NCBI GenBank assembly: GCA_963752595.1
Contig: CAVVYZ010000020.1
Coordinates: forward strand, 1-64,000
Source: an uncultured delta proteobacterium
GTDB lineage: Bacteria > Desulfobacterota > Desulfomonilia > UBA1062
Length of the DNA stretch: 64,000 nucleotides
Direction: 5' to 3'
Position numbers and translations under genes: made by a program. Position 1 is the stretch's first letter. Each line of letters starts with the position of its first letter. Under the pieces are notes generated by a model. That model ran no database searches. It worked only from the letters and a program-made list of their open reading frames with translations, and had not been told where the DNA came from. Positions 14,154-36,757 of this stretch are shown here, piece after piece.

Positions 14154-14801
14154 ATGAAGAAATATCTATCGATACTGGCGCTCGCGCTGGTGCTCGTGCT
14201 GCCCGCGGCCTGCTCGAAGGCCCCGGAGCAGTCGGCACAGAAGGCCGCGGGTGCCGAACAGGCCGGCCCGTACAAGGTGGGGCAGGTAAAGATGAACCCG
14301 CACCCTGCGAGCCTGGAAGGCAAGACCGTGGTGCTCAGGTGGAACGGAAAGTTCAACGGCGACAAGGTCCTCGACAGAGTGGCCGAGCTCCTCGCCCAGA
14401 AAGCTCCGGGAGTGAAGATCGTCAAACTGTGGACAGTGGATCCGGCAACAGCCAATTCATCGGAAGGGGCTGAAAATAGCCTGAAGTTTGCGGAAAGCGC
14501 TCTCTCCCAGAAACCGGATCTCGTGATCGCGGCATCTGCCGATTGAGGGCACTGCACCCCATGGCTGGTAGTTGACCAGCTCAACATTGAAAAAAAGGGC
14601 GTACCCACGGTCACCATAACGACGACGGCATTTAGCGACATGGTCAAAACGACTCTGGATGAGCAGGCTATTGCGGAGATGGCGATAGTTACAGTGGAGC
14701 ATCCCATTGCAGGCCGGAGCGCCGAGGAAACGAAAAAGTTTGCTGACGCGGAATTCCCCAAAATCTTCAAGGCTGCAACGGCATGGCAGCCCACGAAGTA
14801 G
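14154..14801 (+). CDS. UGSC-family selenoprotein 1 (short lipoprotein, D-U-G-H-C), 215 aa
   Basis: In-frame TGA 14544-14546 followed by GHCTPWLVVDQLNIEKKGVPTVTI..., open to TAG 14799-14801; lipobox LPAAC; SECIS-like hairpin. Confidence 0.85.
14564..14580 (+). promoter_or_regulatory. Putative bacterial SECIS hairpin
   Basis: GCTGGT-AGTTG-ACCAGC, loop begins 23 nt after the TGA. Confidence 0.75.
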
Positions 14802-14804
14802 GGA

Positions 14805-15368
14805 ATGGGAGATACAGTCATGAACGCTACTAATATGGGTACAATAGAGCGGAGCACGGTGGGGAAGGGCTGGATAGGGAAGGTAGTCGGCAACGGGTAC
14901 TTGATCCTTGCCTTCCGACTGCTACTGGGTGCAACATTTATGCTGTCCGCTGTGGGCAAGCTCGTGGACATCGAGCGCTACTCGGTGGATGCTGTATACA
15001 ACTTCGCGGTCCTGCCGCTGTGGCTGGCCCGCCCGGCAGGCCTGATCATGCCGTTCATCGAGCTCGGCATCGCGCTGGGCCTCATCTTCGGGGTCCTGAC
15101 CCGGCTGTCTGCGCTCGGTGATGCGGTGTTGAGCCTGATCTTCTTCTTAGTCAAGCTGCACGTGCTCTTCATCCAGGGCAGGGCCATCGACTGCGGGTGC
15201 TTCGGCGCCATCATGACCACGATGGCCTCCGTAACCATCTACATGGACATCCCCATGCTCGTCATGGGCCTGATCATCATGTTTGCCCCGGCTTCTTCTC
15301 GTCACTGGATTTCCCTTGCCCGGTTCGTGCCTCAGAAGCTGAAGGACAAGCTGGATTTAGTCTGGTGA
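14805..15368 (+). CDS. MauE/DoxX family membrane protein
   Basis: Four or five TM segments, FMLSAVGKL, IDCGCFG motif. Confidence 0.85.
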   Translation: MGDTVMNATNMGTIERSTVGKGWIGKVVGNGYLILAFRLLLGATFMLSAVGKLVDIERYSVDAVYNFAVLPLWLARPAGLIMPFIELGIALGLIFGVLTRLSALGDAVLSLIFFLVKLHVLFIQGRAIDCGCFGAIMTTMASVTIYMDIPMLVMGLIIMFAPASSRHWISLARFVPQKLKDKLDLVW

Positions 15369-15518
15369 CGTGCGGTGACTATGCTGCGGTGACCCGGATA
15401 TAACAAATGCATAGTGAGAAGGAAGGCAAATCGTGAAGGCAAAACCACAAGATCGTGTTTGTGGGTGAGAAGCAGGGATTTTAAAATATTTTAATTAGAC
15501 GAAAGGATGGTAGGGAAA

Positions 15519-17279
15519 ATGAAGAAAAGGCAGATGTATAGTCTTACGGCTTTCATGATGATTGCCGCATGGCTCTTAATGCCGGCATGCGCCTCGGCCA
15601 AGGAGGCGGTGCAGCAATGGGAGATGGTCAATCCGGCAGGGGTGATCAAGGTTACGCATATCAAGATGGCGCCCAGGATCGATTCCCTCGAGGGAAAGAC
15701 CATAGCGCTCAAGTGGAACCAGAAACCAAATGGGAACCTCTTCCTTGACCGGATCGCAGAACTGCTCAAGGAAAAGTATCCCACCTCGAAGATCGTGAAG
15801 ATATACGAGTTGGAGCCCACGACCGTTCCCCAGAGTGCGAACGATGCAGATTCAATGCGCAAGGCCAGGCTCATTGCGAAGTACAAGCCGGATATCGTGA
15901 TCGGCGCCCAGTGCGATTGAGGGAGTTGTACATCATGGCTGGTAGGTGACCAGCTCTCAGTCGAAAAATTGGGTATTCCGACCGTAACCGTTTCAACGAA
16001 CGAGTTCATCGGGCTCGCAAGGACGAGCCAGGTAAGCTTCGGTGCTGCTGACATGGCTTTCGTCATCGTGCCCCATCCTCTGGGAATGATACCCAAGGAC
16101 GAGGTAAGAGCCAAGGCGGATGCAGCTTTTAACGACATAGTGAAGGCAGCCACAGCTTGGAAACCGAGCAGAACAACGATTCCTGGTGCCAACAAGGCCC
16201 CGTATCCTCTGGAGACGGTAAAGTTCAAGGGCACCTATGCGCAGTTGAACAAGATGTTCTATGACAACAAATGGTCCCTGGGCCTGCCCATCATCCCGCC
16301 TACGAAAGAGGCGGTAGCGAAGATGCTCAAAGGCACGACCCACAAGCCGAGCGAGATCGTCTGGGATGCCATTCCCCCGAGGAACGGCGTCGTCACGGTC
16401 GAGCTCGTTGCGGCAACAGGCGTCATGGCCGGTGCCAAACCTGAGCACATGCCCCTGCTTCTGGCCATTGTTGAGGCCATGAAGGCCACCCCGCAGAAGG
16501 GGAGGGAATGGCGCGCGCTGACCACCACGACCCACCACACGGCCCCGCTGATCATCGTGAGCGGCCCGATCGTCAAGGAGCTTGGCATCGCCTACGGCCT
16601 CGGAGCCATGGGCCCCGAGATGCCGGTGAATAACGCTGTCGGATACTTCGTCAACCTGCTCGGCGACGTGGCCGGCGGTTCCCGTCCGCCCGATGCGGAC
16701 AAGACGACCCAGGGCTGGGTGGGCAACATCATCGCCACGGTTGCAGGCGAGAACATCGACGCCAACCCGTGGAAGGAGAGCTGGCCGGTTGAGAAGGGCT
16801 TCAAACCCACCGACAACGTGGTCATCTATGCCGGCGGAGGAATCCCCGTCAACCAGAACGACCATGCCAGCGTCGATCCCAAGGACCTTGCCGAGGTCAT
16901 GGCGTATACCATGAACGCCATAGGCGTGAGCCGGTGCTTCCAGGACGGCGGCGTCTGGATGCTGGGTCCGGAGCATGCGGCAACGCTCGCCAGCAAGGGA
17001 TGGACCAAGAAGGACATCCGGGAGTTCCTCTACAAGAACGCCCGTGCACCTTACAGGGTACAGCCCGAAATGGTGGATGGGAAGTGCGCGGCAACCGCGT
17101 GCTGCCCGCCTGCCAGCTTCGGTCCGGTGACGCCCGATACCATGATACCGCTGTGCAAGAACCCGGATCAGATCGACATCGTAGTCGTAGGCGGTCCCGG
17201 TAAGCAGAGCCAGTGGTGGTCGTATACGGAGTTCGGTCCGTTCCCGCCCATCATGACGAAAGTTGACAAGTGGAAGTAG
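15519..17279 (+). CDS. UGSC-family selenoprotein 2 (C-D-U-G-S-C) fused to a large uncharacterised C-terminal domain, ~586 aa
   Basis: ORFs 15507-15920 and 15969-17279 are in the same frame, joined by TGA 15918-15920; signal peptide; SECIS-like hairpin; start could be 15507. Confidence 0.88.
15938..15954 (+). promoter_or_regulatory. Putative bacterial SECIS hairpin
   Basis: GCTGGT-AGGTG-ACCAGC; only the loop differs from the other copies. Confidence 0.75.
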
Positions 17280-17289
17280 TATAAAGCTC

Positions 17290-17499: not shown

Positions 17500-18499
17500 A
17501 TGTCGAAAGAGAATGACAGCAACGACAATGGAATCACCAGGCGTGGATTCATTAAGAACACCGCATTGGCCGGTGCGGGAGTCATGCTCGCGGGCTCAGG
17601 CATTCTCGGCGGATCCAAGCCGGCAATGGCTGCAAGCAGCGGCGATGCAGTGGTCGACGAGATCTACCGCCAGGCCATGGATTTTCATCTGCACTGCGGC
17701 CCGGATCTCATCGAGCGGAAGTATGATGACCTGACCCTGGCCAAAATGTGCATGGACACCGGTCTGACCGGGCTTCATGCTCAAGTCCCACCTCACCTGT
17801 ACCGCCGAGCGCGTGTTCTTCCTCCGCAAGCATTTCCCCAAGATCGAGACCTTCGGCGCCATGGCATTGAACCGCACCTGGGGCGGGGTGAACGTTAATG
17901 CTGTGGAAGTAATGTCAAAGGTCAAGGGCCACCATCTCCGGCAGGTCTACTTCCCGACTCAGGATGCCGAGAATGACGAGAAGACCAAGCTCAAGGAACA
18001 TGTGAAGGTGTTCGACGACGGCAAGCTCACCAAGGAGTCCATGGAGGTCATCAAGTTCTGCGCCAAGAACAAGCTGATCGTGAGCTCCGGCCATCTGTCG
18101 ACTCAGGAAGCGTTCCATCTCGCGGAAATGGCCAGGGAGATGGGCTGCGAGCGAGTGGTATGCACGCACGTCACCAATAGAAGCACCGAGATGAGCGTCG
18201 AAAACCAGAAAAAGATGGCGAAGATGGGCGTCTACCTCGAGTACAACTACCTGCAGATAAACTATTACAAGCAGGACCCGAAGAGCTCGAAAGGCCAGTC
18301 TCCCGAGAAGATTGCCAAATGGGTCAAGGAAGTCGGCGCAGACAACATCATCTTTGCCACCGACTTCGGGCAGGTGGATAACCCGACCACGCCTGAGGGC
18401 ATGAGGATGCTCATTGCCGAGATGCTGAAGCAGGGCATCTCCAAGGAAGATCTCATCAAGATGACCTCCACCAACCCCTACAAGATTTTGAGGGTATAG
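17500..18499 (+). CDS. Tat-exported metal-dependent TIM-barrel hydrolase (DUF6282-like), one frameshift
   Basis: ITRRGFIK Tat motif; DFHLHCGPD, KSH, SSGHLS, TH, TDFGQ motifs; frameshift near 17772. Confidence 0.75.
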
Positions 18500-18583: not shown

Positions 18584-20305
18584 ATGAGGAAGGTATTGCA
18601 GAAACATCTTCTCACATGCATCGTTCTCATGCTGATGCTCAGCCTGCCAATGCTCTCATTCGGCAAGGAGACGGCACAGAGCTGGGAACTGGTGAACCCC
18701 CAAGGGATCGTTAAGGTTGAGCCCATGAAGGTCAACCCGCACCCCGCGACCCTGGAAGGCAAGACAGTGGTGCTCCGCTGGAACGGCAAGCACAACGGCG
18801 ACAACGTTCTCAACCGTGTTGCCGAGATGCTGAACGAGCAGGTTAAAGGCGTCAAGATCATCAAGTTATGGGAAAAGTATCCCGGATACGGTGACGGTGA
18901 GCAGCAGCCAGGAAAAGAGCAAGGACATCGCGAAGAAAGTCGCTTCGTTCAAGCCCGACCTGGTCATTGCTTCACAGACCGATTGAGGGTCCTGTACCTC
19001 ATGGCTGGTAGTTGACCAGCTCAATGTCGAAAAACTGGGTATCCCCACGGTCACCATATCAAGCACCGAGTTCGTCGAGCTCGCAAGAACGACCATGCGG
19101 AGCGTCGGTGCTCCGGATATGGCATTTGCTATCGTTCCCCACCCGCTGGGAGGGATCAAACTGGATGAAATACGTGCCAAGACAACCGCCGCTTCCCGGA
19201 GATCATGAAGCTGGCAACAAAGTGGAAGGCCGAACGCCGCGAGCGTCAGCTGCGGCAAAGACGCCGTATCCTGCGGAGAGATTTACGTTCAAGGGACAGG
19301 TCCGGATGTCACCGACCTTTATTACAAGGAAAAGTGGAGTGACGGCCTGCCCATCGTTCCGCCCACAACCGATCGCGTGAAGAAGATGCTGGCCGGGACA
19401 AGCATGAAGCCGCAGTGAGGTCATCGGCATTATCCCTCCCCGCATGGGTGTTATCACGGTTGAGCTGGCAGCAGTGCATGCCGTGATGGCCGGGGCCAAG
19501 CCCGAGTATTTCCCCGTTATCTTGGCCGCGGTCAGAAGCCCTGCTCGACCCGAAGCACGACTGGCGGTCGGCAACTACGACGACAAACCCCTGTGCTCCG
19601 TTGATCGTGGTCAATGGGCCCATCGTCAAGGAGCTGGGCATCCAGTACGGAACTGGTGCATTCGGGCCCGGCCCGGCTGCAAGCCCTAACGCCACCATCG
19701 GCCGCGCCGTCAACCTCATCATGGATATCGTTGGCGGATCACAGCCCCCGTCCCCTGACAAGACCACGCTGGGGAGCCCTTTCAGCTACACCATGGTGCT
19801 GGGAGAGAACGAAGGTGCTAATCCCTGGGCCCCGCTGAACGTACAGATGGGCGCCAAGAAGGGTACGAGCACGGTCACCGTGTTCGAGGTAAGGAGCTTT
19901 ATCAACTTCAACCTCCACGAGCCCAATACCGCTGAAGGCCTGCTCCATCCGATGGCAAAGACCATTGCCCCGGTAATAGGCCTCGCCGAGAACGGGTTCG
20001 AGTGCAAGGAAGGCGTGAAGGAACTTCTCATCTTAAGCCCCGAGCACGCGGATACGATAAAGAAAGACGGCTGGGACCTTGATCGCGTCAAGAGCTATAT
20101 CCACGAGAACGCGCGCATCTCCATGGCTGACTTCAATATCCGCAACAACAACCGCAAACCGCTCTGCCGGCAGGATGAAGCCAACCCCACTGTCGTAAAA
20201 GGACCGGGGAATTATCTGATTATGGTTGCCGGCGGTGAAGGCAAGCACTCAGTCTTTCTGGAAACCACCAGATACGACCCGGTGACAAAAGAAATCAAGG
20301 AGTAG
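18584..20305 (+). CDS. UGSC-family selenoprotein 3 (T-D-U-G-S-C), long form, several frameshifts
   Basis: TGA 18984-18986 in conserved context; colinear with paralogs after correcting indels near 18882, 19190, 19300, 19410 and 19535. Confidence 0.8.
19004..19020 (+). promoter_or_regulatory. Putative bacterial SECIS hairpin
   Basis: GCTGGT-AGTTG-ACCAGC. Confidence 0.75.
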
Positions 20306-20365: not shown

Positions 20366-20376
20366 CCAAAGTGGGA

Positions 20377-20516
20377 CGCCCGAACCGGGCACGGAGTTTG
20401 GGAAAAAAACAGGAAGGAAGGAGTTCACCAATGAAAAGATCGATGAAAGGTTTTCTGGGACTGGCCATTTTGGGTTTCCTGGTCATGTCCCTGCCCGCTT
20501 TCGCTTAGGAAGCGGT
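20377..20516 (+). repeat. 140-bp near-identical direct repeat (leader + RBS + signal peptide), copy A
   Basis: Matches 34952-35091 with about 3 substitutions. Confidence 0.9.
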
Positions 20517-22188
20517 ACAGAATTGGAAGCTCGTCAAACCAGAGGGGGTCGTCAAGGTCGAGCCGGTCAAGCAGAACCCCCATCCGGCGAGCCTGGAGGG
20601 GAAGACCGTGGCCCTGCGGTGGAACGGCAAGCAGAACGGGAACAACTTCCAGGAGCGAGTGGCCGAGCTCCTCAAGGAAAACGTAAAGGATATCAAGATT
20701 ATCAAACTCTACGAGGTGGAGCCCTGGATGAACATCACGGCGGGCCCGCCCTATATGTCGGCGGCGGATGCCGATCGGATGGCCAAGACCATCGCAAAAT
20801 ACAAGCCGGACCTGGTCATTGCCTCGTATGCCGATTGAGGGTCCTGCACCTCATGGCTGGTAGTTGACCAGCAAAATCTCGAAAAATTAGGCATTCCGAC
20901 CGTTACCGTTGCATCGAGCGAATTTGTGGGCCTGGCCAGGAACACGGCCAAGAGCCTGGGGGCCCTGGATGCGTGTTTCGTTACCGTTCCCCACCCCATG
21001 GGGCTGATCCCCCTGGCGGATATTCGCAAAAAGGCCGACGAGGCCTTCCCGGAGATCCTGAAGGCGGCCACGACGTGGAAGCCGAAGGCAGTCAAGGCCG
21101 TCGCGAACAAGGCCGTCTACCCGGCGGAGAGGATAACCTTCAAAGGGACGCAGCACGACGTGAGCGAATTCTTCTTCAAGAATGACTGGACCCTGGGCCT
21201 GGAGATCGTCCCGCCCACGCCGGAGCGTGTCGCCGCGATGCTTAAGGGCACGACCCGCAAGCCTTCCGAGGTCATCGGCGCCGTTCCCCCCCGGGATGCG
21301 ATCCTGACCGTGGAGATGGCCGCGGTTTACGCCGTCATGGCCGGATGCCGGCCGGAACACATGCCTGTTCTCCTGGCGGCCCTGGAAGCAATGGTGGATC
21401 CGGCCCATGGCTGGCGGGCATCCACGACCACGACCAACGGCGTGGCGCCCCTCTTCGTCGTGAGCGGCCCCATCGTCAAGGAACTGGGGATCCAGTCCGG
21501 TACCGGTGAACTCGGCGGCGGTCAGACGTCGAAACCCAACGTCGCCATCGGCCATGCCATCAATCTCGTCGGAGACGTCCTCGGCGGGTCCAAGTCCCCC
21601 GCCCCCGATCAGTCGACCATAGGCCAGACGGCGAACATCATTGCCATGGTCGTGGGCGAGAACGAGGCGGAAAACCCCTGGGAGCCCTTCAGCGTCGAGC
21701 AGGGCTTCGACCGTAACAAGAGCACCGTGACGATCTTCGGTGTCCGGAGTTATGCCAACCACAACCTCGGCGACGTCAAGACGGGACAGGACTTCCTGAC
21801 CGCCATGGGGTACGTCATGGGTGCCGTGGGCGCCGTCGGTGAGACGACAAAGCCTTGCGCCCCGGGGAACCGGGAACTGGTCCTGATGTGCCCGGAACAC
21901 GCCTCCCTCGTCATCAAGAGCGGGATCAAGACCAAAAAGGAGGTTCAGTCGTTCCTCTTCGAGAAGAGCAGGATCACCCGTTCCCTCCTGTTGACCCGGT
22001 ACTCGGCGAACCCCGGGAAGCTCGCCAACACGATACCCTGCTACAAGGGGTGGGAGAAGTGGGATACGATTCCCCTGGTCGCCAGGCCCGAGGACATCCT
22101 CGTCGTCGTTACCGGAGGACCCGGGAAGCACTCCGTGTACATGAGCACCAATGGGTACGCGCCGGTGACGAAGGAGATCAGAAAGTAA
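20431..22188 (+). CDS. UGSC-family selenoprotein 4 (A-D-U-G-S-C), long form, ~585 aa, with an extra in-frame TAG at 20506-20508
   Basis: Single reading frame from ATG 20431 through TAG 20506 and TGA 20836-20838 to TAA 22188; SECIS-like hairpin. Confidence 0.8.
20856..20872 (+). promoter_or_regulatory. Putative bacterial SECIS hairpin
   Basis: GCTGGT-AGTTG-ACCAGC. Confidence 0.75.
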
Positions 22189-22359: not shown

Positions 22360-22962
22360 CGCCGCGAGCGTCACTGCGGCAAAGAAGCCGTACCCTGCCG
22401 ACCGGTTCACGTTCAAGGGCACGGTCACGGATGTCACCGACCTTCCACAATCGAGCGGGTCAAAAAGATGCTTGCCGGCACGAGCCGGAAACCGGGCGAT
22501 GTCCTGGGCATCATCCATCCCCGCATGGGAGTCATCACGGTTGAGCTGGCAGCAGTCCATGCAGTCACGGCCGGTGCAAAGCCAGAGTACCTTCCCGTCA
22601 TCGTAGCGGCGGTCGAAGCACTGCTCGACCCGAAGCACGACTGGCGCTCCGCCACCACGACCACCAACCCCTGTGCGCCGCTCAACGTGCAGATGGGCGC
22701 CAAGAAGGGCACGAGCACGGTCACCGTGTTCGAGGTTCGGAGCTTCATCAACTATATTTTTGAAAATGCCCGCATCTCCATGGCAGACTTCAATATCCGG
22801 AACAACAACCGCAAGCCGCTCTGCCGGGAGAATGAAGCCAACCCCACGGTTGTCTCCTCACCCAACTGTTATCTGGTGATGGTTGCCGGCGGCGAAGGTA
22901 AGCACTCGGTCTTCCTGGAAACCACCAGATACGACCCGGTAACGATAGAAATCAAGAAATAG
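22360..22962 (+). pseudogene. Internally deleted partial duplicate of selenoprotein 3 C-terminal domain
   Basis: Segments nearly identical to 19237-20305 joined across three deletions; no Sec domain or signal peptide. Confidence 0.8.
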
Positions 22963-22987
22963 AACTCAATAAGTACACACCTCCATA

Positions 22988-23335: not shown

Positions 23336-23590
23336 TATAATCAAGATTTTTGGATCGTCCAAAAATCCCTCCTCCCAAACTTCTTCTTTTTGTTTCTGCC
23401 CGTCGAAGAAAGAAGAAGTTTGAGCCGGGGGACCAGGAAACGTTTCGCGGCAGCGGAAGGAGCTTAAGTGCGGAAGGCGCGACTCCGGCACAGGGTGTGC
23501 CATGGTTGTGCGGTCTAAAGGAAAGGATTGAACCTTGGCCTCTGCTATCCAAGGGGCAGGGAGAATGCCTATTTCGAGAAAGGAGAAAAA

Positions 23591-23947
23591 GTGAAATCCC
23601 GATCGTTATTGACAATGGTGTTTCTGGCTTTTGTTTTTGTGGGTGCCAGCCCGATGGGGGACTCACAGGCCGCATCCGCGTCCCTGGAGCAGCGGCACTC
23701 AAAACAGGGAATCAGCTGCAAGCAATGTCATGGCGACAAACCCAAGGAGGAACAGGTTTCTATGGAAACCTGCCTGGGCTGCCACGGCAGCTACCAAAAG
23801 CTGGCAGAGGCAAGTAAAGCAAAGACACCCAATCCTCACGATTCTCACATCGGGGAAATTCGCTGCTCCCTTTGCCATCACGTCCACAAGGATTCGGAAA
23901 TGTATTGCAACAAGTGTCATCAGTTCAACTTAGATTTTCCCAAATAA
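23591..23947 (+). CDS. Small tetraheme cytochrome c (flavocytochrome c heme subunit type)
   Basis: Signal peptide; CKQCH, CLGCH, CSLCH, CNKCH; NPHDSH; GTG start after AGGAG. Confidence 0.9.
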   Translation: MKSRSLLTMVFLAFVFVGASPMGDSQAASASLEQRHSKQGISCKQCHGDKPKEEQVSMETCLGCHGSYQKLAEASKAKTPNPHDSHIGEIRCSLCHHVHKDSEMYCNKCHQFNLDFPK

Positions 23948-24007
23948 GCGGAAAAGGACCATTGATTTAAACTTTAACCCTGAAGAAAACCTTGAAAGGA
24001 GACACCT

Positions 24008-25572
24008 ATGAAAAAGGGGAATAAAGATGGGAGCATAAGTAGGCGGGGGTTCATCAAGGGGGCGGCTGCCGGTCTTGGTGCATTATCACTCATGAATCTT
24101 GGAGTCAAGGACTGCACGCGGCACAACCTCCGAAGAAATGGGATCGTGAGGTTAACATTCTCATATTGGGAGCGGGAGCTGCCGGGTGCATGGCAGCGAT
24201 TACGGCAAAAGACGCCGGAGAATCCGATCTTTTAGTGTTAGAAAAATGGGCCTATCCGGGAGGTGCTGCAGCATTGTCATCCGGAACGATCCTTGCCGCG
24301 GGAACTAGTTTACAAAAAGAAAAGGGAATCCAGGATTCAAAAGAACGTTGGTTCAATGATGTCTTGAGACTTTCCGAAGGTGGTCTCAATCCGGCGATAG
24401 TGAAAGCAACAATAGATAATGCCCTTGATTTTTTTAATTTCTTGTACGATTCAGGCATGAGATGGTCAACTATAGATCCCCTTCCCGGATACAGCGCCGA
24501 TCGTTGTTATCGCGATGCAGGCGGTGGCGCCAAACTGATGAAGACCGTCCTTGCACAAGTAAAGAAAAGAAACATCGAAATTCTTCTCGAAACAAAAGCA
24601 ACTAAACTTATCGTGGATTCTTGCGGAGGAGCTTATCCTCAGGGCGTAGTACTTGGCGTCGAGTGCGTGAGAGAAAATGGAAAGGTTTTAAATATCAAGG
24701 CAAAAAAAGGAGTTCTCATTTCTACAGGCGATTTTTCTGCCAATTCTAAATATATGGAGAGCCATTTCCCCCAAATGAAAGGAGCTCTCTTTGTAGGGCA
24801 TCCCGGAAATACCGGGGACGGCATTAAAATGGCTCAGAAATTAGGTGCCGACATTACGGGCTACTTCCCTGAAGGATCACCGCATTGCGTGGAATTTGCC
24901 CCCGGGAAGGCAGTCCTGTGGTGCCGATATGATCTCCTTTCCCGTGATGGACTTATCCTTGTGAACAAAGCTGGAAAGCGCTTCTGTGATGAGATTACAA
25001 GGGGCCATTACACCCCCTTGCTCCCCGAGGTTCAAAGTCAAGAGGATGGTTTCTTCGGTTGCATATTTGACGAAGCGATTGTCAAAACAATAAAAGAAGA
25101 TCAACGTTTTAAAACAAACTTCCGAGGACGTGAAAAGCTATTTAACGATGGATTAAAAGGAGATGGATTCATAATCAAAAAAGCGGATACCTTACCGGAA
25201 TTAGCCCAGAAACTCGGCATGAATCCAGAGGGACTCGCCAAAACAATAGCGGCCTATAATGAAGGCGTGTCCAAAAAGAAGGATGAATTTAACCGAGAGC
25301 CAAAGTACCTGATGAAGATCGATACGCCTCCATTTTATGGCTGGAAAGGTGTTATCGGTGTTCCATCCACACGAGGCGGATTGAGAATGGATGCACAAGC
25401 GCGGGTCCTTGATCCGGACCTTAATCCCATTCCGAGGCTCTACGCTGCTGGGCATACAATTGGTGGATATACAAATGAATCAAGCTACCGCAGCGGCTGG
25501 CACCTCATGAACGCCTTTGTCTTTGGGCGAATAGCAGCAAAGGAATTGCTTGCAAAAAAGCCCTGGGCATAA
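24008..25572 (+). CDS. Tat-exported flavocytochrome c flavin subunit (FAD_binding_2), one frameshift
   Basis: ISRRGFIK Tat motif; frameshift near 24118 joins to GAGAAG; STGDF, NTGDG, LVNKAGKRF, RLYAAG motifs. Confidence 0.88.
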
Positions 25573-26845: not shown

Positions 26846-27073
26846 AACCATCATTTGGATATCATATCTTTAAGTAGCCGGATAGATTACAAATATGTGT
26901 AATTTCGTTTATTGCAATTTTATCATTATCTTATCAAGCCTCTCCTTACAAGGAGTAATATCCAGGTAGGTGTGAAGCCATATTGACTACGGGATCGCAC
27001 ATCCGAATGATCTGCTCCACCATACAGATGATGAGCTTTAGGTCGCCCCATCCCGTGTATATAATTTACATCT

Positions 27074-27965
27074 TCATGATTCACTTCCTTTCATTACCTG
27101 TTCCCTGAGACATTCCGCCAGAACGATGCCAACCTCTGGAGTCGCACCTGACACTCTCTTCTTCCGGATGAGGGTTTCATCACTGCTGCCGAGCATACCC
27201 TCAATGGAAATGACATAGCCGCAGAAATGGGCATAGGCACCTGCAGGCAGTCTGCAGTCCTGGCCGAGTGTCCGGAGGAAGGCTCTTTCCGTCTCGGCGC
27301 AGAGCCTTGTTTCTGTGTGGTCCAGAAGCCTGATGACCCGGAGCACCCCTTCATCGTCGCATCTGCTCTCCACCGATATTATCCCCTGGCCGGGGGAGGG
27401 CAGTATTGTGTGCGGGTCAATAGCAACACCAGGGTGGAAGATTCAGCCTGATAATGCCCGCAGCGGCCAGAATGACCGCATCCACCTCATCTCCAACTTT
27501 CTTGAGGCGGGTTGGGACATTGCCCCGGATATCAACGGCTGTGAGATCAGGCCGAAGGGCCTTGAGCTGGCATCTGCGGCGCATGCTCGACGTGCCCACC
27601 CGTACTCCCGCTGGTAGTGTTTCCAGGGTGTAATTCTCTTTCGAGAAAAGCATATCCCGCGGATCTTCTCTCTTGAGGTATGCCCCGATGGCAAGGCCGT
27701 CCGGTATGATTGCCTGCATGTCCTTGAGGCTGTGGACAGCGATATCGATGCTGCCGTCCAGCAGGTATTTTTCGATATCCTTGACGAACACCCCCTTGCC
27801 GCCTATTGCATCCAGAGGAGTGTTCGAAAGGGTGTCTCCGGTCGTGCTGATGGTTACAACCTCGGTCTTAACCCCGGGTGCCATCGACTCAATCGCCGAG
27901 CGTACGGTATCCGTCTGGGCGAGTGCCAGAGCACTACCCCTTGTGCCTATCCTGATAGTTCTCAT
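27074..27965 (-). CDS. hemC: Hydroxymethylbilane synthase, frameshifted
   Basis: [47 protein letters not shown]. Confidence 0.85.
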
Positions 27966-29168
27966 CGAGCTGGAATATCCTCCGAATGCACTCGATATGC
28001 ATGCTGTCCGGGTACTCCTTGAGAAAACTTACGGGCCTGTTCAGCAACCTTCTGATGGGAGACTGAAGCCTTTTTCTCATCACGTTCCTTTTCCCCTTCG
28101 GGAAGCGCCAGAGAACTCATCTGATCCTGCAATGTATGAATCAACGAGGGAAAACAGATCCTTAATAGTGGTCTGGGCATCCAGGGAGGAGAGCCACTTT
28201 CTCATACTTGTCCACTTCGGATTCGATGATGGATAAGGCGTTTAAAGCCTCCGCCTCCCGGTGGGAAAATGTCCTGTCAACAATGGATTTCAGTGCATCG
28301 ATATCGTAGAGATAGCAGTTGTAGCATTTCCTGCCGCCGGGTCCACGTCTCGGGGAACCGCAATATCGATGATGATGACGGGGATGGTTTTCCTGGCTTT
28401 CATAGCATTCGCTCACCATGCTTTGGTGATGATGGGATGTGGTGATCCGGTGGACGTGATGACGATATCGCTCCAGGTAAGCTCATCGGCGAGGTACTCG
28501 AACGGTCTGGCGGTTCCTCCAAGATCATGTGCAAGATCATAGGCGGTTCCGTAGGTTCTATTCGTGATGATGAGATTCTTTACCCCTCTATCCACGAGTC
28601 TCTTTGCCGCTATGCTCGCCATCTCTCCCGCACCTATAACCAGTACGCGACTGCGACTGATATCCCCGAAGACATGCGTTGCGATTTCAACAGCTTCCGA
28701 AGCTGCCGATACCGGGTACATGCCGATCTTTGTCTCGGCGCGAACCAGTTTGGAAGCCCTGAATGCCCCGTGAAGGGCCTTGTTCAGTATAATTGAAGTG
28801 GTATTGATGCGAGGGTCTCCCGGTACGAATCCTTGACCTGGCCCAGTATCTGGGGTTCCCCGATAACGAGCGAGTCAAGTCCGGAAGCCACCATGAAGAG
28901 GTGCCTACGGCTTCCCGGCCTGAAAAGTATTCGGATACCTTTTTAATGTCTCGTTGTTGATCCCGGAAAGAGCGGCCAGGAGATTATATACTGATTCTTT
29001 ACGATAGCAGTCCAGTAAACTTCGGTGCGGTTGCAGGTGTAGAGGGTAAATGACTCAGAACCTTGTTCCCATAAGGACATGCATGTCTCCGGGATCGATC
29101 CTGATCTGTTCCCGGACATCGACCGGTGCACATTTATGGTTGATGCTGATGCAGTTGATAGGGTCCAT
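27934..29168 (-). CDS. hemA: Glutamyl-tRNA reductase, heavily frameshifted (errors or pseudogene)
   Basis: [54 protein letters not shown] fragments. Confidence 0.8.
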
Positions 29169-29271: not shown

Positions 29272-30075
29272 TCAGAGATAGCTGTGCAGCCCCGGAAGGT
29301 AGTTCACCCCGAAATAGGTGAACAGAACGCTCACCAGGCCTATCAGGGAGAGCGCCGCAACCCTTCTCGTCACCCCGCCTCCCCTGATCCTCTCATGGAG
29401 CACTGCCGCATAGATGAGCCAGGTGATGAGCGCCCACGTCTCCTTCGGGTCCCAGCCCCAATATCTTCCCCACGCCATCTGGGCCCACACGGAGCCGGTG
29501 AGGATGCCCGCGGTGAAGAAGATGAATCCGATCGTCACACAACGGTAGAACGTGGTCCCCCAAAGGATTTCCCCCGGTAAGAACCCGTTGCCCCTCAGCA
29601 GAAAAATCCCGAAGACCGAAGCCACGAAGAAGGATGCATACCCAAGGAAACAGGTGATCACATGGATGGCGAGCCAGTTGCTTTTGAGCGCCGGGATCAG
29701 GGGCTGGATACTGTTTTCGACCCCGGGAGAGAAAGAGGCATATCCGAGCATCAGGGCCGCGGCAGGCAGCACAAAGGCCAGGACTTTATCCCTGGCCTGC
29801 TCTTTAACGCCGAGCAGGGCAATGAGCACCGTTGCCCAAGAAAAGAAAACCAGGGACTCATAAAAATTTGACAGGGGCACGTGCCCGATCCCATGTGCAT
29901 AGGACTCGCTCCACCGGATGATGATTCCATTCGCATGGAGCGCGAAACCGACCACAGCAATCCAGAAGGCAAGGCGGGCCATCCCCTTTTTTCCCAGGAT
30001 CAGGCCCAGGAGCAACAGGCAGAAAGCTCCGAGGTAGATATAGATGACGATGCCGATAACAGTACCGCTGCTCAT
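29272..30075 (-). CDS. ccsA: Cytochrome c biogenesis system II heme ligase CcsA/ResC
   Basis: WAQMAWGRYWGWDPKETWALITW (WWD domain), GLHSY. Confidence 0.92.
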   Translation of the reverse strand: MSSGTVIGIVIYIYLGAFCLLLLGLILGKKGMARLAFWIAVVGFALHANGIIIRWSESYAHGIGHVPLSNFYESLVFFSWATVLIALLGVKEQARDKVLAFVLPAAALMLGYASFSPGVENSIQPLIPALKSNWLAIHVITCFLGYASFFVASVFGIFLLRGNGFLPGEILWGTTFYRCVTIGFIFFTAGILTGSVWAQMAWGRYWGWDPKETWALITWLIYAAVLHERIRGGGVTRRVAALSLIGLVSVLFTYFGVNYLPGLHSYL

Positions 30076-31187
30076 ACGCTGTCTCCTTCACCCTGAGCAT
30101 ACCCTGCGGGTCCCTTTCGCGCGGCCGTATGGGAGGTGTCGGAAGCATCTCCCTTCCCCGTCTTGGGTCCCTGGCCGGTTCGGGGGACCACTAACACGAG
30201 CAGGAGGCTCACCAGGAAGAGCGCACCTCCGGCAGCCGCCACAGGAGCGCCGGGGTCGCGCTTTACCCCGATGCCGGTGGCATACGAGGCCTCCAGCTTT
30301 TCCAGCGAGAAGGTGTAGGGCCGGAAGCTCGCAGGGTCGAACCCCGGCATCTTCTCAAGGAGACCGGGCATCCGGGCCTTGATGGCGTCGATGTCCTTGA
30401 ACACCCACAGGTACCGCTCCCCTGAGGAGTCACTGATCAGGAGCTTCACTGCCGGCCCCGCGTGCATGAGATCGTCCCAGACCTTCACCACACGTGCCTG
30501 GGTGCCGGGCTGTGAAAGGGGGATGGCCTCTCCTTGCATCACCTTGAAAAACCTCTTTCTGTTGCCGACTTCAACAGACATGGATGCCGACAGGGAAGGC
30601 CGAAAGCTCTCCTGATAGAAACCGATGCCTTCGAAGCTGGCTGGATGATTGACCATCACCCTGGCCCGACCGGCAACATGACCACCTTTAAAAAACGAAA
30701 GGTTTGACACATATTCCCTGGGCATTCCACTCTTGTAATAATCCACATTGAAAGAGTCGCATCGGACAGAGAACCCGAGGTCCTGTGAGTATCCCTTTTT
30801 CACCACCGCCTTGGAAGTGCTCGTTCCCACCGGGATATCCATGAAGCCGTCCAGCTTCAAGGCGCCCAGGGCATAGCCCGCGATTATCAATACGATGCCG
30901 CCGTGCATGAGCAGCATGAGCAGGCTTCTCCTCCTGAGGTTAAGCCATCGCCTCATGCACAGAACGAGATTGACGCACAGGAGAAACCCGGCCCCCATGA
31001 ACAGGATAGAATGAAATATGTCGTACGGGGAGAGCAGGGAGAGGAGCCAGGGGGCCGGGGCATGTACACCGGATGCAGCCCCGCCCCCCTGGGGAAACAC
31101 GGTTCCGATCAGACACAGTACGACAACCAGGAGGAGGAGCGAAACCGTGAGCTTTAATGAGGAGAACACCTTGAGCATATATTTCAT
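30072..31187 (-). CDS. resB: Cytochrome c biogenesis protein ResB/CcsB
   Basis: SSLKL..IGTVFPQ, H-containing TM, VNHP..FYQ, DPG motifs. Confidence 0.88.
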   Translation of the reverse strand: MKYMLKVFSSLKLTVSLLLLVVVLCLIGTVFPQGGGAASGVHAPAPWLLSLLSPYDIFHSILFMGAGFLLCVNLVLCMRRWLNLRRRSLLMLLMHGGIVLIIAGYALGALKLDGFMDIPVGTSTSKAVVKKGYSQDLGFSVRCDSFNVDYYKSGMPREYVSNLSFFKGGHVAGRARVMVNHPASFEGIGFYQESFRPSLSASMSVEVGNRKRFFKVMQGEAIPLSQPGTQARVVKVWDDLMHAGPAVKLLISDSSGERYLWVFKDIDAIKARMPGLLEKMPGFDPASFRPYTFSLEKLEASYATGIGVKRDPGAPVAAAGGALFLVSLLLVLVVPRTGQGPKTGKGDASDTSHTAARKGPAGYAQGEGDSV

Positions 31188-31211
31188 TTCTATTCCCTTC
31201 TACCCTCGCTC

Positions 31212-33717
31212 TCACATGGCCATGAACACCGCCCAGAAGATCAGGGCGGTCAGCGAGAGGCCGAGGATCACGCTTGCGATGCCGAACACGCCTGCGAAGA
31301 GCTGGGAACCAGTGCCCGGGCCTGCGCACTTGATCTCATCGAGCCGGTTTTCCGCGAGGATGCGCTCGTACTCCAGCGGACGCTCGTCTTGAGGGCCTCG
31401 AGAGTGTACCTGCCCGTGAACACGTTCCTCTCCAGCGGGAACTTGTCCGGTACGAGATGGTTGTTGAAGAAGTGGATCGTGAAGATGAACACCGCTGCCA
31501 GGAACGCCTCCTCGGAGTGGGCCAGGTGCACGATGTTGATCATCCATCCGGGCATGAAGTACGACGAGAGCTCGGGTATCCACATGATGACCCCGGAGAG
31601 GCCGATGACGAACATGCCCCAGAATACCGCCATGAAATCGAACTTCTCCCAGTAGGTCCACCGGTCGAACTGCGGCTTCTCTCCCCGTGTTGAAGAACCA
31701 TCTGAACATGCCCAGGCAGTCCTCGATGTCCTTGAGCCGTGGGAACAGGGAGTCGGGCCCGAAGAGCCTTCCCACCCATCCCTTGACCTTGAAGCTGGGA
31801 ACAGGAATTTGAGCGACAGCCAGCAGGTGTACAGGAACAGGGCGCACATGGCAGCCGCGCTGATGCGGTGCACGAGTGCCGCGCCCGCTGGCGCCTCCCA
31901 TCAGGGCCATGAATGCCTTTGCCCACGAGGCGTCGGTGTACTTGATCGGGAACCCCGAGATCACCACGCCGAAGAAGGAGAGGATGAGCACCACGTGCAT
32001 GACCCTTTCCCGCATACCGAACCTTCTCACATACTGACATCCCTGGTCTTCAGGAAGCTCATGCTTCGCTTCCAGGCCTCCCTTGATCAGGCAGCTCTTT
32101 TCCGCATATGCCTTGCGCCACCAGAGGAGCGAGTGGGCCCAGAAGAAGAGGAACACCCCTGCCAGGAGCGCGATCATGAACTTCTTGGCCAGGTACAGCC
32201 CCAGGAACCCCTTCGGGTCTTCCGGGTCAGGGTGGGCCACGTACGACACGAAACGGGGATGAAATCCCTCGTGGCACTTCCCGCACGTCTCTACCAGAGT
32301 TTGAGGGTTCAGGGCGGAAGCGGGGTCGTTCGCGGGCAGGATGTTGTGGGCAAGGTGGCAGTCCGCGCAGCCCGCAACCTTATCGGGGTATCCGAGGGCC
32401 ATCGCCTTGCCGTGATAGGTCTCTCCGTATGCACTGACCGCCATGGGGAACACCCCGTAGCGGCCTGCCCCGCCCCCTTCCTTGTGGCACGAGATGCACA
32501 GGTTGGTGTAGTACTCCCGCTTGTCGGCCATGCCCTTGTCCGTGGAGGCAAAGACAGGCGTATTGTGGGTGCCGTGGCAGTCACTGCACGAAGCGGCATC
32601 CTTGTTTCCCGCCAGGACCTTCGCCACATGCCCCTTCATCACGTACTTGTCCTTGTCGCTGTGGCACTTCAGGCAGGCAGCGATCCCCGAGGCCTTGCCG
32701 CTCGCGGCCTTCACGGCCTCTTCGGGGTGGATATCGGTGTGGCAGTTGCAGACACGAGAGCTTCGCTTTCACCGCGTGGAAGCTCTTCGAGTATTTCTTC
32801 TCGATATCCTGGTGGCATACACCGCAGGAGGTGAGCGCTGGCTTCTGCTGCTTCTTCATGTGCAGGGCGAGGTCCGTTATGCCGCTATGGCAGACGGTGC
32901 AGCTCAATTTCCCATGGAATGTCTGCGCAAAAGGCTTCTCATATTTTGGTCCGGAGTGGCACGAAGTGCAGTCTGCAATCGAGAGTGCGGGTCCCTGAGG
33001 GGCAGGGGCCGCTTTAGGCTTCAGGATCTTTGGTGCCGGGGCCTCCCGAGGATGGATGCCGGCGTGGCACTGGGCGCAGGAGAACTTCTTCACGGTCGCG
33101 TGGAACCCCTGCTTCTGAATGTCCTTGTGGCAGGTGAGGCAGGATGCCGTCTCGACCGGCTCGGCCCCCCGCATGTGCTTCGAAATCTCGGTCACACCCT
33201 TGTGGCAGACGGAGCACTGAAGCGCCGCGTGCTTCGTCTGGGAAAAATACTTCCCGTACTCGGGCTTGGAGTGGCACGCCGTGCAGTTCGGCGCAATGCC
33301 CGCCGCTTTAGCCGGGGCGGCTTTGCCCGAAGCTGCAGGAGTTTTCGCATCGGAAGCCTTGCCGGGGGCTGAGCCCGCTTTGACTTCTGTTTCCTTGCCG
33401 GGAGTCTCCGGCGCCTTCGATTTTTGCGGATCGCCCGAGAGCATCTGCTTGTGGATCGCGAGGAACTTGTCGGAAAGGGAGATCTTGCCCTGTCCATGGC
33501 ACATCTGACATTGCATCATCGTCATGCCCTTCGTATCCGGATGGGTTTCCGGAAGAACCTTGGCGACGTCAGCATGACAGGCCGTACAGTCTCCCGGCTT
33601 TTGACCGGGGCCCGCCATCACTATTGAACTCCAAAAGAGTATAGCGATGCAAAGGATGAGGGAGAGGATGAAATACGTTGAAAGATGCCTTAACTGAGAG
33701 TGCATGTCTATACCCAT
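31212..33717 (-). CDS. Multiheme cytochrome c fused to C-terminal cytochrome b domain (CbcL-like), frameshifted
   Basis: 14 intact CxxCH plus one broken by a frameshift near 32750; membrane domain with FDRWTYWEKFDFMAVFWG and HSEEAFLA..IHFF. Confidence 0.85.
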
Positions 33718-33858
33718 GGAGTTGCCTCCTCCTGAGAGATGACTTAGAAGTTTTCTTACCTGCCCATCTTACGCGGCAAACTAGATCGGGTTCAGCTGCC
33801 GCAAGATTGTAAAACCAAACCCTCAGCTTGAAAGCGTAAGGTGACTTGTTTATATAAA

Positions 33859-33916
33859 AACCTACCCCTTAATTTTGAAGAAATTGTGAGCATTATGTGG
33901 AATTCCAGAGGAGATT
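33859..33916 (-). promoter_or_regulatory. 4 x 11-bp box array plus -10-like TAGGTT upstream of the cytochrome/heme operon
   Basis: Minus strand AATCTCCTCTG-GAATTCCACAT-AATGCTCACAA-TTTCTTCAAAA; boxes at 33910, 33899, 33888, 33877. Confidence 0.65.
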
Positions 33917-34221
33917 TCCTATCGCTTTCTTACGGCATGTCAATGGAACGGTCCCCTCCCGGATGGGAGGGGACTCATTACTTTTGCCTTTTTCAACAAG
34001 TATTAACATGAAGGATAGCGGGATAAGCAGGGATAGTTACATTAAAGGGACTTCGTTGGAGTTTTTGATTTATAACGAAGTGGTCTAAATTGAACGAGCT
34101 TATCGAGTCAGCCCACAGTTCACAGCGGAGTTGTTTTATGAGGCCATTTGTAGAGGCTCTATGCTTCCTGTTGGTATTTTGCCATTTGGGGATGTGCTTG
34201 AATCTCTCTTAGGGATAAATT

Positions 34222-34567
34222 CCCCGCAGCTTGCTGCGAGAGGGAGTGAGTGATAGAGCGGATGAGTGAGCATATATCTCCACAAGAGTCATAATGTATC
34301 GGTATTACTCTACCATATAGTATGTCCTGCGAAATATCGAAGGGTGGTATTTTCTGAAGAAGTAGACAATGCATTGAAGAAGGCGTTGTGGGGTGGCGAA
34401 TTTTGGATAGATGGATATTATATCAACACGGTCAGCAGGCATGGGAATGAGGATGTTGTCCGCCAATATGTAGAAGGGCAGGGCAAAAAGGAAGAGTATA
34501 AAAGGCTTCATAGTGAGCAGGTACGATTGTTCTAGGCACCGGATACCCCGCAGCTTGCTGCGGGGTA
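34222..34567 (+). mobile_element. Non-autonomous IS200/IS605 remnant (tnpA with central deletion)
   Basis: HKSHNVSVLLYHIVCPAKYRR joined directly to LWGGEFW..GY..YVEGQ without the HUH motif; flanking CCCCGCAGC-TT-GCTGCG hairpins. Confidence 0.85.
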
Positions 34568-34650
34568 GTTATAGTAGCGGCAATTATTCATCTGAATCCT
34601 AAACGGTTCTTGCCCAGGCTTATGTTCATTTCTTTAATTGCCGCTGCAAT

Positions 34651-34903
34651 AAGAAGCCGTCTTCAGAGAACCGGTCACCCCGGCGAATCCTGAAGTGCCT
34701 GGAATCCCACGGTACTGTACTGGACGCTCTCACGGCAAGTATTATTCCTTCCGGTGAGTGGAGTTGCATATGCTGCCGGTCGAAAAAAGAGCCATTGCGC
34801 ATATAAATCTTCGGACGCAAGCACCGGATGTAAAAGAGATATTCAATCTCCACATAAAAAACACAAAATGATCATATTGTCATCAAATATCGATAGGTAC
34901 CTT
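34651..34903 (+). repeat. Diverged upstream regulatory repeat, copy B, ending in a 4 x 11-bp box array
   Basis: Aligns with 23056-23335; CA boxes at 34851, 34862, 34873, 34884. Confidence 0.8.
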
Positions 34904-34951
34904 CCAAATTAAGGTCCTCCGCCTCTCATCGGGCGGGGGGACCTTGTAGGG

Positions 34952-35091
34952 CGCCCGAACCGGGCACGGAGTTTGGGAAAAAAACAGGAAGGAAGGAGTT
35001 CACCAATGAAAAGATCGATGAAAGGTTTTCTGGGACTGGCCGTTTTGGGTTTCCTGGTCATGTCCCTGCCCGCTTTCGCCAAGGAAGCGGT
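34952..35091 (+). repeat. 140-bp near-identical direct repeat, copy B
   Basis: Matches 20377-20516. Confidence 0.9.
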
Positions 35092-36757
35092 GAGGGAATG
35101 GGAGATCGTCAACCCGCAGGGAACGATCGCCATCAAGGAGATCAAGCTCGCCCCGCGGCTGACGACGCTGGAGGGAAAGACGATCGTCCTGCGCTGGAAC
35201 GGCAAGCACAACGGGGACAACTACCTCAACCGCGTCGCGGAGCTGCTGGCGGAAAAGGTTCCGAGCGCCAAGGTCATCAAGGTCTATGAGCTGGACAAGT
35301 CGACCATCAAGATAAGCAGCTCCAATGCCGAGTCGGAAAGGATCGCGGGCGTGATCAAGGGGCTGAAGGCGGACCTCGTCATCGCCTCGCAGGCCGATTG
35401 AGGGTCCTGCACCTCATGGCTGATAGTTGATCAGTCCAATTGCGAAAAATTAGGAATCCCGACCGTTACCGTTACCACCGATGCATTTATCTCGCTTTCC
35501 CGGGCAAGCGGTGAGAGCATCGGCCTGGCCGATATGGCCTTTGTCGAAGCCAAGCACCCGATGGGCATGCTGCCGCTGGCAGAAATCCGAGCCCGTGCGG
35601 ATGAAACCTTCAACGACATCATTCAGAAGGCGATTCACTGGAAGCCTTCACGGACCTCTATTGCCGGCCTGGGGAAAGCTCCCTACCCGGCCCCGCGGGT
35701 CAAATTCAAGGGGACCTACGCGGCCCTGAACAAGATGTTCTACGACCAGAAGTGGTCGCTGGGCATGCCGATCATCCCGCCGACCCCCGAAGCCGTGGCA
35801 GCCATGCTGAAAGGCACCACCCTTAAACCCGGCGAGGTCGTCTGGATTGTGCCTCCACGGATGGGTCAGTTGACCGTCGAGCTGGCAGCCACGATAGGAG
35901 TGATGGCAGGCTGCAAGCCGGAGCATATGCCCCTGCTGCTGGCTATGGTGAAGGGCTTCAGCAATTCGGACTTCGACTGGCGCGGCTCCACGACGACTAC
36001 GGGCCCGACGGTTCCGATCGTGGTCATCAACGGCCCGATCATCGACGAGCTGGGAATCGGCTACGGGACCGGCGTCTTTGGCGGTGAGCACCCGGTGAAC
36101 ATCGCCCTGGGTTACTTCGTGAACCTGGTCGGGGATATCGTCGGCGGATCCGTCGCCCCAGATCCGGACAAGAGCACCCATGGGACGAGGGCCGATATTT
36201 CCGCCCTGGTTATAGCCGAAAACGAAAAGGCAAACCCCTGGAAGCAGAGCTACGCCGTGGAAAAAGGCTTCAAGCCCACGGACAACGTAGTTTCCGTTTT
36301 CTCGGGCTATTCGGGCAACAACAACGTGGACCATACGAGCACGACGGGTAAGGCCCTCCTCGACACGATCTCCTTCGGGCTGGCCGGCGCCGCCTCGGGT
36401 ATCACGAGCTGCTTTACCGATCTTGACAAACCGTACAGCCCGGGCAATTCGGTGAGGTTCGCCTTCATTTTCCTCGGACCCGAGCATGCGGCTACCGTGT
36501 TCACCGATTTCAAGACCAAGCAGGCCGCCGAGGAGTACGTGGTCAAGAGGGCCGTGGGCCCCAATTGGACCTATGCGCCCAATCGGTGCGTTCCTCCGAA
36601 GGATTTCGGGCCGGTCAACGCCGATACGATGCTTCCCCGCTTCACGAATGCGAAACAGATCCACATCGCGGTCACGGGAGGTCCGGGAAAACAGACACAG
36701 TTGTTCCCTTCGTTCGTGACGAATAAGCGGGTCGTCTCGGTCGTCGTCGATAAGTAA
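35006..36757 (+). CDS. UGSC-family selenoprotein 5 (A-D-U-G-S-C), long form, ~583 aa
   Basis: TGA 35399-35401 in frame with both flanking ORFs; signal peptide; SECIS-like hairpin with compensatory change. Confidence 0.88.
35419..35435 (+). promoter_or_regulatory. Putative bacterial SECIS hairpin (covariant copy)
   Basis: GCTGAT-AGTTG-ATCAGT: G-C to A-U pair swap and G-C to G-U relative to other copies. Confidence 0.78.

Follow-up and report, generated by a model that had tools for sequence, protein, structure and literature searches.

We analysed a 64,000-nucleotide (nt) stretch of contig CAVVYZ010000020.1 (positions 1 to 64,000 of the forward strand; hereafter the window) from GCA_963752595.1, an 84% complete assembly of an uncultured delta proteobacterium that we refer to as G000. 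The window carries five genes of the UGSC domain family, numbered c1 to c5 in window order, all on the forward strand and each interrupted by a TGA that very likely encodes selenocysteine (Sec). The first of them, c1 (14154..14801, TGA at 14544, motif D-U-G-H-C), encodes a predicted lipoprotein which, when read through, has 215 amino acids (aa) and consists of the Sec domain only. The other four encode exported fusions of a UGSC domain to a partner domain of about 360 aa, Unknown_1: c2 (15507..17279, with a start that may be 15519; TGA at 15918), c3 (18584..20305; TGA at 18984), c4 (20431..22188; TGA at 20836), and c5 (35006..36757; TGA at 35399). In each copy the TGA is in frame between an Asp and G-[S/H]-C, and is followed by the pattern G-[S/H]-C-T-[S/P]-W-L..DQ...EK.G[IV]PTVT. 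The frame after the TGA spans 84 aa in c1 and about 450 aa in c2, c4, and c5, and the full-length products would be about 21 kDa (c1) and about 61 kDa (c2 and c5) in size. The motif reads UGSC in c2 to c5, and c1 displays the variant UGHC.

A first-pass annotation of this DNA, made from the letters alone, had listed five aligned in-frame TGAs with homology running past them, N-terminal export leaders on all five products, and a large partner domain fused to four of them. Our sequence check agrees on each of these points, for signal peptides only on the basis of inspection plus a hydrophobicity score. That annotation had also proposed that gene callers split such genes, and this is what the databases contain: public gene calls of the window products include P0139 (130 aa, with the Asp that precedes the TGA as its last residue) and P0090 (407 aa), and 100 of 101 short homologs stop at that same Asp. 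It did not include four features that we describe here, namely an in-frame TAG in c4, a rhodanese gene upstream of c1, a stand-alone Unknown_1 gene, and the deleted remnant of another.

Two of the copies are broken as assembled. The indel corrections already thought necessary for c3 amount to seven frameshifting, non-triplet indels relative to both of its orthologs in the congeneric genomes G004 and G011. Because these orthologs are themselves intact, the breaks in c3 are likely assembly errors, judging from the sequence comparison. The G000 assembly is noisy elsewhere, as both EF-Tu genes are frameshifted and the AcrB gene has 13 non-triplet indels; c1, c2, and the stand-alone Unknown_1 gene display no frameshift relative to G004. 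In c4, the TAG at 20506 lies directly after the signal peptide, where c5 has AAG (a two-base difference), and may reflect either a pseudogene or a base-call error. Pyrrolysine read-through of this TAG was considered and rejected, as no PylS above the cut-off was detected in G000. Public reads from three DNA runs of one study yielded short, shallow contigs that cover neither the c3 breaks nor position 20506; one public contig confirmed the TGA of c4 without difference.

Several lines of evidence indicate that the five TGAs are very likely read as Sec. Among 145 placed domains, the codon at the Sec column was TGA in 140, TGY (Cys) in three, and GGG (Gly) in two. These domains derive from 155 hits in the window and in fetched loci, the latter designated by L numbers (eight hits were unplaceable and two were misplaced); the metagenome loci were retrieved using a profile of the c1 type and are related to one another rather than independent samples. 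Homologs with Cys at this column, which the first-pass annotation had proposed to look for, do exist: apart from the three TGY codons, Cys was found in 10 of 19 full-length c1 homologs, the remainder having Gly (six, as G-D-R-C), Trp (two), or Ser (one). In all 126 distinct Sec sequences, the hairpin located 12-48 nt from the UGA had a stability above the mean of synonymous recodings, and the same test at three control offsets gave 61-70 of 140. The bacterial rules for a selenocysteine insertion sequence (SECIS), as quoted in the accessible text of PMC13188914 and applied here as a hairpin 16-37 nt after the UGA with a G in the first two loop positions, held for 119 of the 126 distinct sequences and for all five window copies, compared to 12-33 of 131-133 controls. 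The window hairpins, all on the forward strand, lie at 14563..14581 (c1, loop AGUUG), 15937..15955 (c2, loop AGGUG), 19003..19021 (c3), 20856..20872 (c4), and 35418..35436 (c5, in which A-U replaces a G-C stem pair present in the other copies). Different subfamilies build this hairpin from differing sequences, and the G-D-R-C copies of c1 showed no excess stability.

The search for Sec machinery, named as a check in the first-pass annotation, was answered in part. G000 encodes selA, selB, and a TGA-containing selD, all above cut-off and intact, but selC was not found in this assembly, either as an Rfam match above cut-off (150 of 517 candidates scored) or as a blastn match to the selC of G011. 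A 'tRNA-SeC' called by ARAGORN at C1:367477 was discarded as spurious, being 69 nt long compared to the 93-nt selC of G011 and having no Rfam support. The selC-flanking genes, surE and a tonB-like gene, are also missing from G000, so that the absence of selC points to an assembly gap. It might nonetheless be argued that UGA is a true stop here, and that the genes are split or decayed in a strain which lost its tRNA-Sec: selC was found in neither G000 nor G004, and c3 and c4 are broken as assembled. This reading is extremely unlikely in view of the selC found in 10 of 11 congeners, the flanking genes missing along with it, the intact selA, selB, and selD, and the hairpins kept in all five copies. 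An integrase-like open reading frame (ORF) follows selC in G011 (L148:342-1593), and G009 has a partial selC repeat. By its surroundings selC resembles a site of integration, and this might explain why two assemblies lack it.

All five copies score above the 25-bit gathering cut-off of PF24696 (112 bits for c1, 131 for c2, and 121 for c5), in line with the UGSC membership first assigned to them. Scores against NF041046 (cut-off 125) fall just below the threshold, with 123.4 bits for c1, 123.0 for c2, 122.4 for c4, and 111.4 for c5. The window copies are members of the Pfam UGSC family, and form an outlying clade relative to NF041046. The family, its Sec codon, and its fusion to Unknown_1 are already in print, according to the accessible parts of PMC1976440, PMC2398784, and PMC5029168 (the family and the fusion since 2007-2008), and a 2026 review, in its available portion, still lists UGSC as uncharacterised. 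As a correction to the first-pass annotation, which had headed the five genes a 'hidden family', both the family and the fusion are published (PMC2398784).

The predicted model of c2 (predicted local distance difference test, pLDDT, 96.1; predicted template modelling score, pTM, 0.94) displays a Sec domain with the order (beta-alpha)5 and the Sec at the start of helix 3. Its structural matches over residues 28-191 are flavodoxin/Rossmann-like (Z 9.3-11.8), and no thioredoxin-fold chain was among the listed fold matches, unlisted families being possible. The available text of PMC2398784 (2008) described the UGSC domain as 'likely Trx-like'. None of the window copies matched PF07355, the GrdB/PrdB family. 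Nevertheless, the resemblance to GrdB/PrdB suggested in the first-pass annotation holds as homology, if not as membership of PF07355, since the alignment of the UGSC profile to that of GrdB/PrdB spans 137 columns (probability 95%, E 4e-8) and places Sec and Cys in register, ahead of the E..G.P and HP motifs. Control profiles (receiver domain and rhodanese) gave probabilities below 1%. We thus predict that the Sec domain is flavodoxin-like and homologous to GrdB/PrdB. Searches of PDB sequences with UGSC or Unknown_1 queries returned nothing significant, and PDB matches to the GrdB/PrdB profile were set aside as repeat-protein artefacts only. Many short PrdB-like UxxC selenoproteins that match only the C-terminal part of PF07355 occur across the phylum (L130-L145). 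Collectively, Sec recoding, UGSC membership, export, fusion, gene-caller splitting, and GrdB/PrdB kinship are supported.

The C-terminal domain of the fusions matches Unknown_1 by its segment AVMAGC.PE..P...TT...NGP, compared to the alignment printed in supplementary Fig. S1A of PMC2398784. Unknown_1 is 360 aa long and comprises 3,513 representative clusters at 50% identity, with no Pfam family of its own among 53 such proteins scanned and unnamed clusters only in the Atlas. Foldseek returned no match to its predicted model (pLDDT 92.6) at an E-value of 0.001 or below. The best structural match was the alpha chain of class I fumarate hydratase (Z 4.0, 193 aligned residues, root mean square deviation 5.6), a score below typical background which, for a predicted model, shows neither kinship nor a new fold. 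We did not adopt an Fe-S site for this domain because the fumarase-like set of three conserved Cys is missing. The two domains of the fusion are predicted to pack together.

Unknown_1 occurs either N- or C-terminal of UGSC, and among P0357, P0294, P0338, and P0307 it is found with a thioredoxin-reductase-like domain (once), with a small C-terminal CxxC domain (twice), and as a tandem double. All 20 leaderless stand-alone UGSC genes adjoin an Unknown_1 gene. Two Cys, close to residues 446 and 501 of the mature protein, co-occur in 76 of 105 rows in which the exported clade was enriched, compared to six of 136 diverse rows. Other conserved residues in the fusion, besides Sec107 and Cys110, are Thr310-Thr311, Asn344, Asp367, Glu384, and His459. 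The window also has a stand-alone Unknown_1 gene (38192..39484, forward strand), with a twin-arginine-like leader and no UGSC domain, which keeps the N-terminal xNPxG strand; genes of this type (at least 40% identity) are found in at least nine other loci. An internally deleted remnant of a c3-like Unknown_1 gene lies at about 22360..22965 on the same strand; it aligns to c3 in three separate segments, at 73-90% nucleotide identity.

The neighbours of c1 suggest a module. Directly upstream is the gene of an exported rhodanese-fold protein (13711..14136, forward strand; PF00581) with the loop YCACTHDE (CxC), and 3 nt downstream is that of a MauE membrane protein (14805..15368, forward strand; PF07291) with the motif CGCFG, in the context IDCGCFG. 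A Pfam check of such neighbourhoods covered 118 of 186 candidate ORFs and the window rhodanese. A rhodanese gene is directly upstream of 53 of the 55 exported stand-alone UGSC genes with enough flank, compared to none of 20 leaderless ones, and MauE directly follows 30 of 53 exported stand-alone genes. Among the 33 loci of at least 5 kb, rhodanese occurred in 32, Unknown_1 in 27, and MauE in 25. CGCFG is intact in all 42 distinct MauE proteins of related loci. The loop of these rhodaneses is CxCxxEE, with both Cys invariant; the nearest NCBIfam model of the window rhodanese is NF041203 (rhodanese_LYCAU; 74 bits, cut-off 115), from which it differs in having LYCAC, not CxU.

The c1 type has diverged from the fusions. 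Its motif is U/C-[G/A]-H-C in 34 of 82 sequences, UGIC in 24, and UGSC in five, compared to UGSC in 38 of 41 fusions, and the N-terminal xNPxG strand is present in two of 80 c1-type proteins versus all 35 exported fusions. CGHC is the oxidase motif of protein disulfide isomerase. The rhodanese and the c1 type are duplicated together in G004, where a second rhodanese is paired with a Sec-less G-D-R-C copy of c1 (L013:14494-15643); the same duplicated pair is seen at L047:5755-6749. According to the accessible text of a preprint (bioRxiv 10.64898/2026.03.05.709764), two MauE proteins, from two phyla, replaced DsbB in Escherichia coli, and the CxC was required. We detected no DsbB match in G000, at its 84% completeness, and one DsbD/CcdA-type gene. 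Directly upstream of their rhodanese gene, three loci (L093:4087-4677, L106:4878-5495, and L080:5661-6302) encode a conserved exported protein, about 200 aa long, that contains the segment 'IECGEGYTSHE' and for which no Pfam or NCBIfam match was found. Gene clusters of a MoxR ATPase and vWA proteins adjoin the cassette in L060, L070, L079, and L059.

In a quick tree of Sec domains (88 rows, exported singles thinned to about one in four), the five copies fall in one exported clade with support 100. There c1, c2, c3, and c5 each group with orthologs of other genomes, and c4 falls in no clear group. By this sequence grouping the five copies are old subtypes, and a recent tandem duplication was rejected. 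The 'clustered expansion' of the first-pass annotation is therefore right as to clustering and export, but it is not a recent expansion. G004 has c1, c2, and c3 and lacks a block of about 16.5 kb from c4 to c5 with cytochrome, hemC, and insertion sequence (IS)-like genes; G011 likewise runs from c3 to the stand-alone Unknown_1 gene. At both ends of the block absent from G004 sit two nearly identical copies of about 146 nt (20371-20516 and 34946-35091), each covering the signal sequence of c4 or c5 together with the region upstream of it. The near-identity of these leaders suggests recombination or gene conversion between c4 and c5, and may also result from misassembly. UGSC was found in two of 11 congeners, in none of 29 other members of the family and class, and, across the phylum, in 47 of 401 genomes; at least eight matches were present in six of the 47. 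A Syntrophaceae bacterium record contains a relative of c2 with 89% identity, and named homologs come from Anaerolineae, Ardenticatenia, Thermodesulfobacteriota, and Geobacter. Divergent UGA-split UGSC-Unknown_1 fusions of a G-N-A-G-U-G-G-C type, some with twin-arginine-like leaders, were seen in the same operons (L060:4132-6204, L086:4282-6129, L059:672-2633, and L078:3320-5161).

The remaining window genes near the cassette are less constant. An outer-membrane porin-like gene lies at 12300..13660 on the forward strand (NF033939, 100 bits, cut-off 250), its 3' end being approximate owing to a frameshift near 13603 relative to G004. A DUF6282 amidohydrolase-like gene with a twin-arginine-like leader occupies 17500..18499 on the same strand (PF19799); it has one frameshift near 17768, is intact in G004 and G011, and is covered by one low-depth public contig without the extra base. 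We examined the porin, DUF6282, a SHOCT lipoprotein, and the cytochromes as core members and rejected them, as each occurred in 0-2 of the 33 long loci; the porin is left out of the core because it was found by tblastn in only one. Between c4 and c5, a tetraheme cytochrome c (four CxxCH) is followed by a flavocytochrome c-like flavin adenine dinucleotide (FAD) protein (23528-25572). The latter has a twin-arginine-like leader in another frame, and the pair resembles periplasmic reductase pairs. On the reverse strand, 29272-33717 contains one or more multiheme cytochrome genes with nine plus five CxxCH in two frames and a membrane part, followed by resB-like and ccsB genes beside hemC (27417-28400, frameshifted). 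Short fragments at about 26100-26900 and 34000-34500 resemble remnants of IS4-type and IS200-type transposases.

Based on these findings, we tentatively postulate a periplasmic selenol/thiol redox system, which we regard as quite possible, in which substrate-specific fused selenoenzymes (c2 to c5) are served by a shared rhodanese-c1-MauE module that passes electrons to quinone. The fused proteins are predicted to use GrdB-like Sec chemistry, each on its own substrate: the Sec would attack, or exchange with, a bond to sulfur or another heteroatom of a small substrate held on Unknown_1, and the Cys three residues after it would resolve the product to a selenenylsulfide. The lipoprotein c1 would act as a membrane-anchored shuttle, playing the part of DsbA or MauD with a non-thioredoxin fold, and MauE may oxidise it in the manner of DsbB. 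The module, common to the fusions, would likely hand electrons to the membrane quinone pool, and would determine, in the exported enzymes, both the formation of their extra disulfide and the redox state of the U-x-x-C. Here we infer the direction of electron flow and all binding steps.

Some of our observations weigh against this redox system. MauE was detected in only 25 of the 33 long loci, and a second MauE of G000 sits beside a rhodanese fragment, which implies that the pairing may be generic. In c2 and c3, Ala replaces a Cys that is conserved in Unknown_1 (114 of 136), and some divergent exported fusions of MauE loci have few or no Cys beyond the U-x-x-C (none in L108 and two each in L116, L081, and L080). 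A leaderless homolog, P0357, is fused to the thioredoxin-reductase-like domain, pointing to a reductive chemistry for which an oxidising MauE could not supply electrons. The MauE preprint itself, in its accessible part, cites a study that reads MauE as a possible reductase (bioRxiv 10.64898/2026.03.05.709764). The first rival is a periplasmic reductase chain in which the fusions cleave a substrate bond reductively, as GrdB and PrdB do, with electrons arriving through MauE, CcdA, or cytochromes, and in which the inserted cytochrome and flavocytochrome genes belong to the system. The GrdB/PrdB homology, the thioredoxin-reductase-like fusion, the single DsbD/CcdA-type gene, and the tetraheme, flavocytochrome c, multiheme cytochrome, and ccsB/resB genes between c4 and c5 would all fit such a chain. 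Menaquinol, however, is a poor disulfide reductant, the MauE proteins so far tested oxidise, G004 has no cytochrome block between c3 and its SHOCT gene, and tblastn did not detect the block in any of the 33 long loci; we consider the chain unlikely.

Two other explanations place the weight on c1 or its rhodanese. In a system for the transport or detoxification of sulfane sulfur or selenium, the rhodanese would pass a persulfide or perselenide to the U-x-x-C, with the substrate entering via the porin, much like ExtH/ExtI/MccSep of Geobacter. The near-fixed linkage of rhodanese and c1 agrees with this, as do the Sec-less, one-Cys G-D-R-C form that keeps its own rhodanese, the resemblance of the rhodanese to a selenoprotein model (NF041203), and a periplasmic selenoenzyme of Geobacter that reduces polysulfide (available text of PMC13510729). 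Yet the two invariant Cys of CxCxxEE are as compatible with a dithiol as with a sulfur carrier, the porin lacks conservation (one of 33 long loci), and MccSep is a heme protein whose paper, in its accessible part, does not mention UGSC; we hold this explanation to be distinctly unlikely. It is very unlikely, in turn, that c1 has no shuttle role and is one half of a split enzyme, pairing with the stand-alone Unknown_1 protein encoded at 38192 into an enzyme of the fusion type. The parts are complementary, since the xNPxG strand missing from c1 is kept in the stand-alone protein, and the leaderless stand-alone UGSC genes do adjoin Unknown_1 genes. Nevertheless, the stand-alone type was not matched in several long c1-type loci (L060, L086, and L093), c1 has departed from the UGSC motif, and the two genes are 23 kb apart in the window and about 7 kb apart in G004.

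The redox system postulated above may be part of something larger, although this wider proposal is doubtful as a whole. UGSC-Unknown_1 proteins would constitute a large unrecognised class of selenoenzymes, with a flavodoxin-like Sec domain of the GrdB/PrdB type docked on a catalytic domain of 360 residues and a hitherto undescribed fold. Their exported branch would depend on a new relay, in which a Sec lipoprotein replaces DsbA beside MauE and a CxC rhodanese. Its arrays of substrate-specific paralogs would enable anaerobes from two or more phyla to process sulfur or selenium compounds of their environment in the periplasm. Because gene callers halve these genes, databases do not reveal the exported clade or its partners. 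The fold tie to GrdB/PrdB, the near-fixed link to a CxC rhodanese, and the frequent link to MauE make this orphan family testable, and natural Cys versions of c1, such as P0131 from L086, would allow such tests without a Sec expression system. Should c1 indeed be the partner of MauE, it would be a disulfide-relay carrier outside of the thioredoxin superfamily. In the literature we found neither a GrdB/PrdB-type fold for UGSC nor the rhodanese-c1-MauE module, nor a description of the single exported clade or of the extent of Unknown_1, and Haft and Tolstoy 2025 (mSystems) may describe related neighbourhoods.

Among known systems, deltaproteobacterial Geobacter also combines a porin, a rhodanese, and a periplasmic selenoprotein (ExtH/ExtI/MccSep; accessible text of PMC13510729), but there MccSep is a multiheme cytochrome, in which homology to UGSC was not seen, no comparison having been made. 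With GrdB/PrdB (PF07355) the window Sec domain shares Sec and Cys in register, whereas it is shorter, exported, and fused to Unknown_1; no GrdE- or PrdA-like gene was present among the 31 window proteins scanned, no genome-wide search having been made. Like MauE-MauD and DsbB-DsbA, the window has a MauE with an intact CGCFG beside an exported redox protein of the x-x-x-C type. However, this partner is predicted to be a flavodoxin-like selenoprotein rather than a thioredoxin, and its gene is linked to that of a CxC rhodanese; the available text of the MauE preprint (bioRxiv 10.64898/2026.03.05.709764) mentions neither 'seleno' nor 'rhodanese'. The closest likeness is to the UGSC/Unknown_1 fusion in the accessible part of PMC2398784, with the same Sec domain, UxxC motif, and a C-terminal domain matching the printed Unknown_1. 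The window clade differs from the published UGSC proteins in being exported, in including a stand-alone UGHC lipoprotein subtype, and in its rhodanese and MauE partners.

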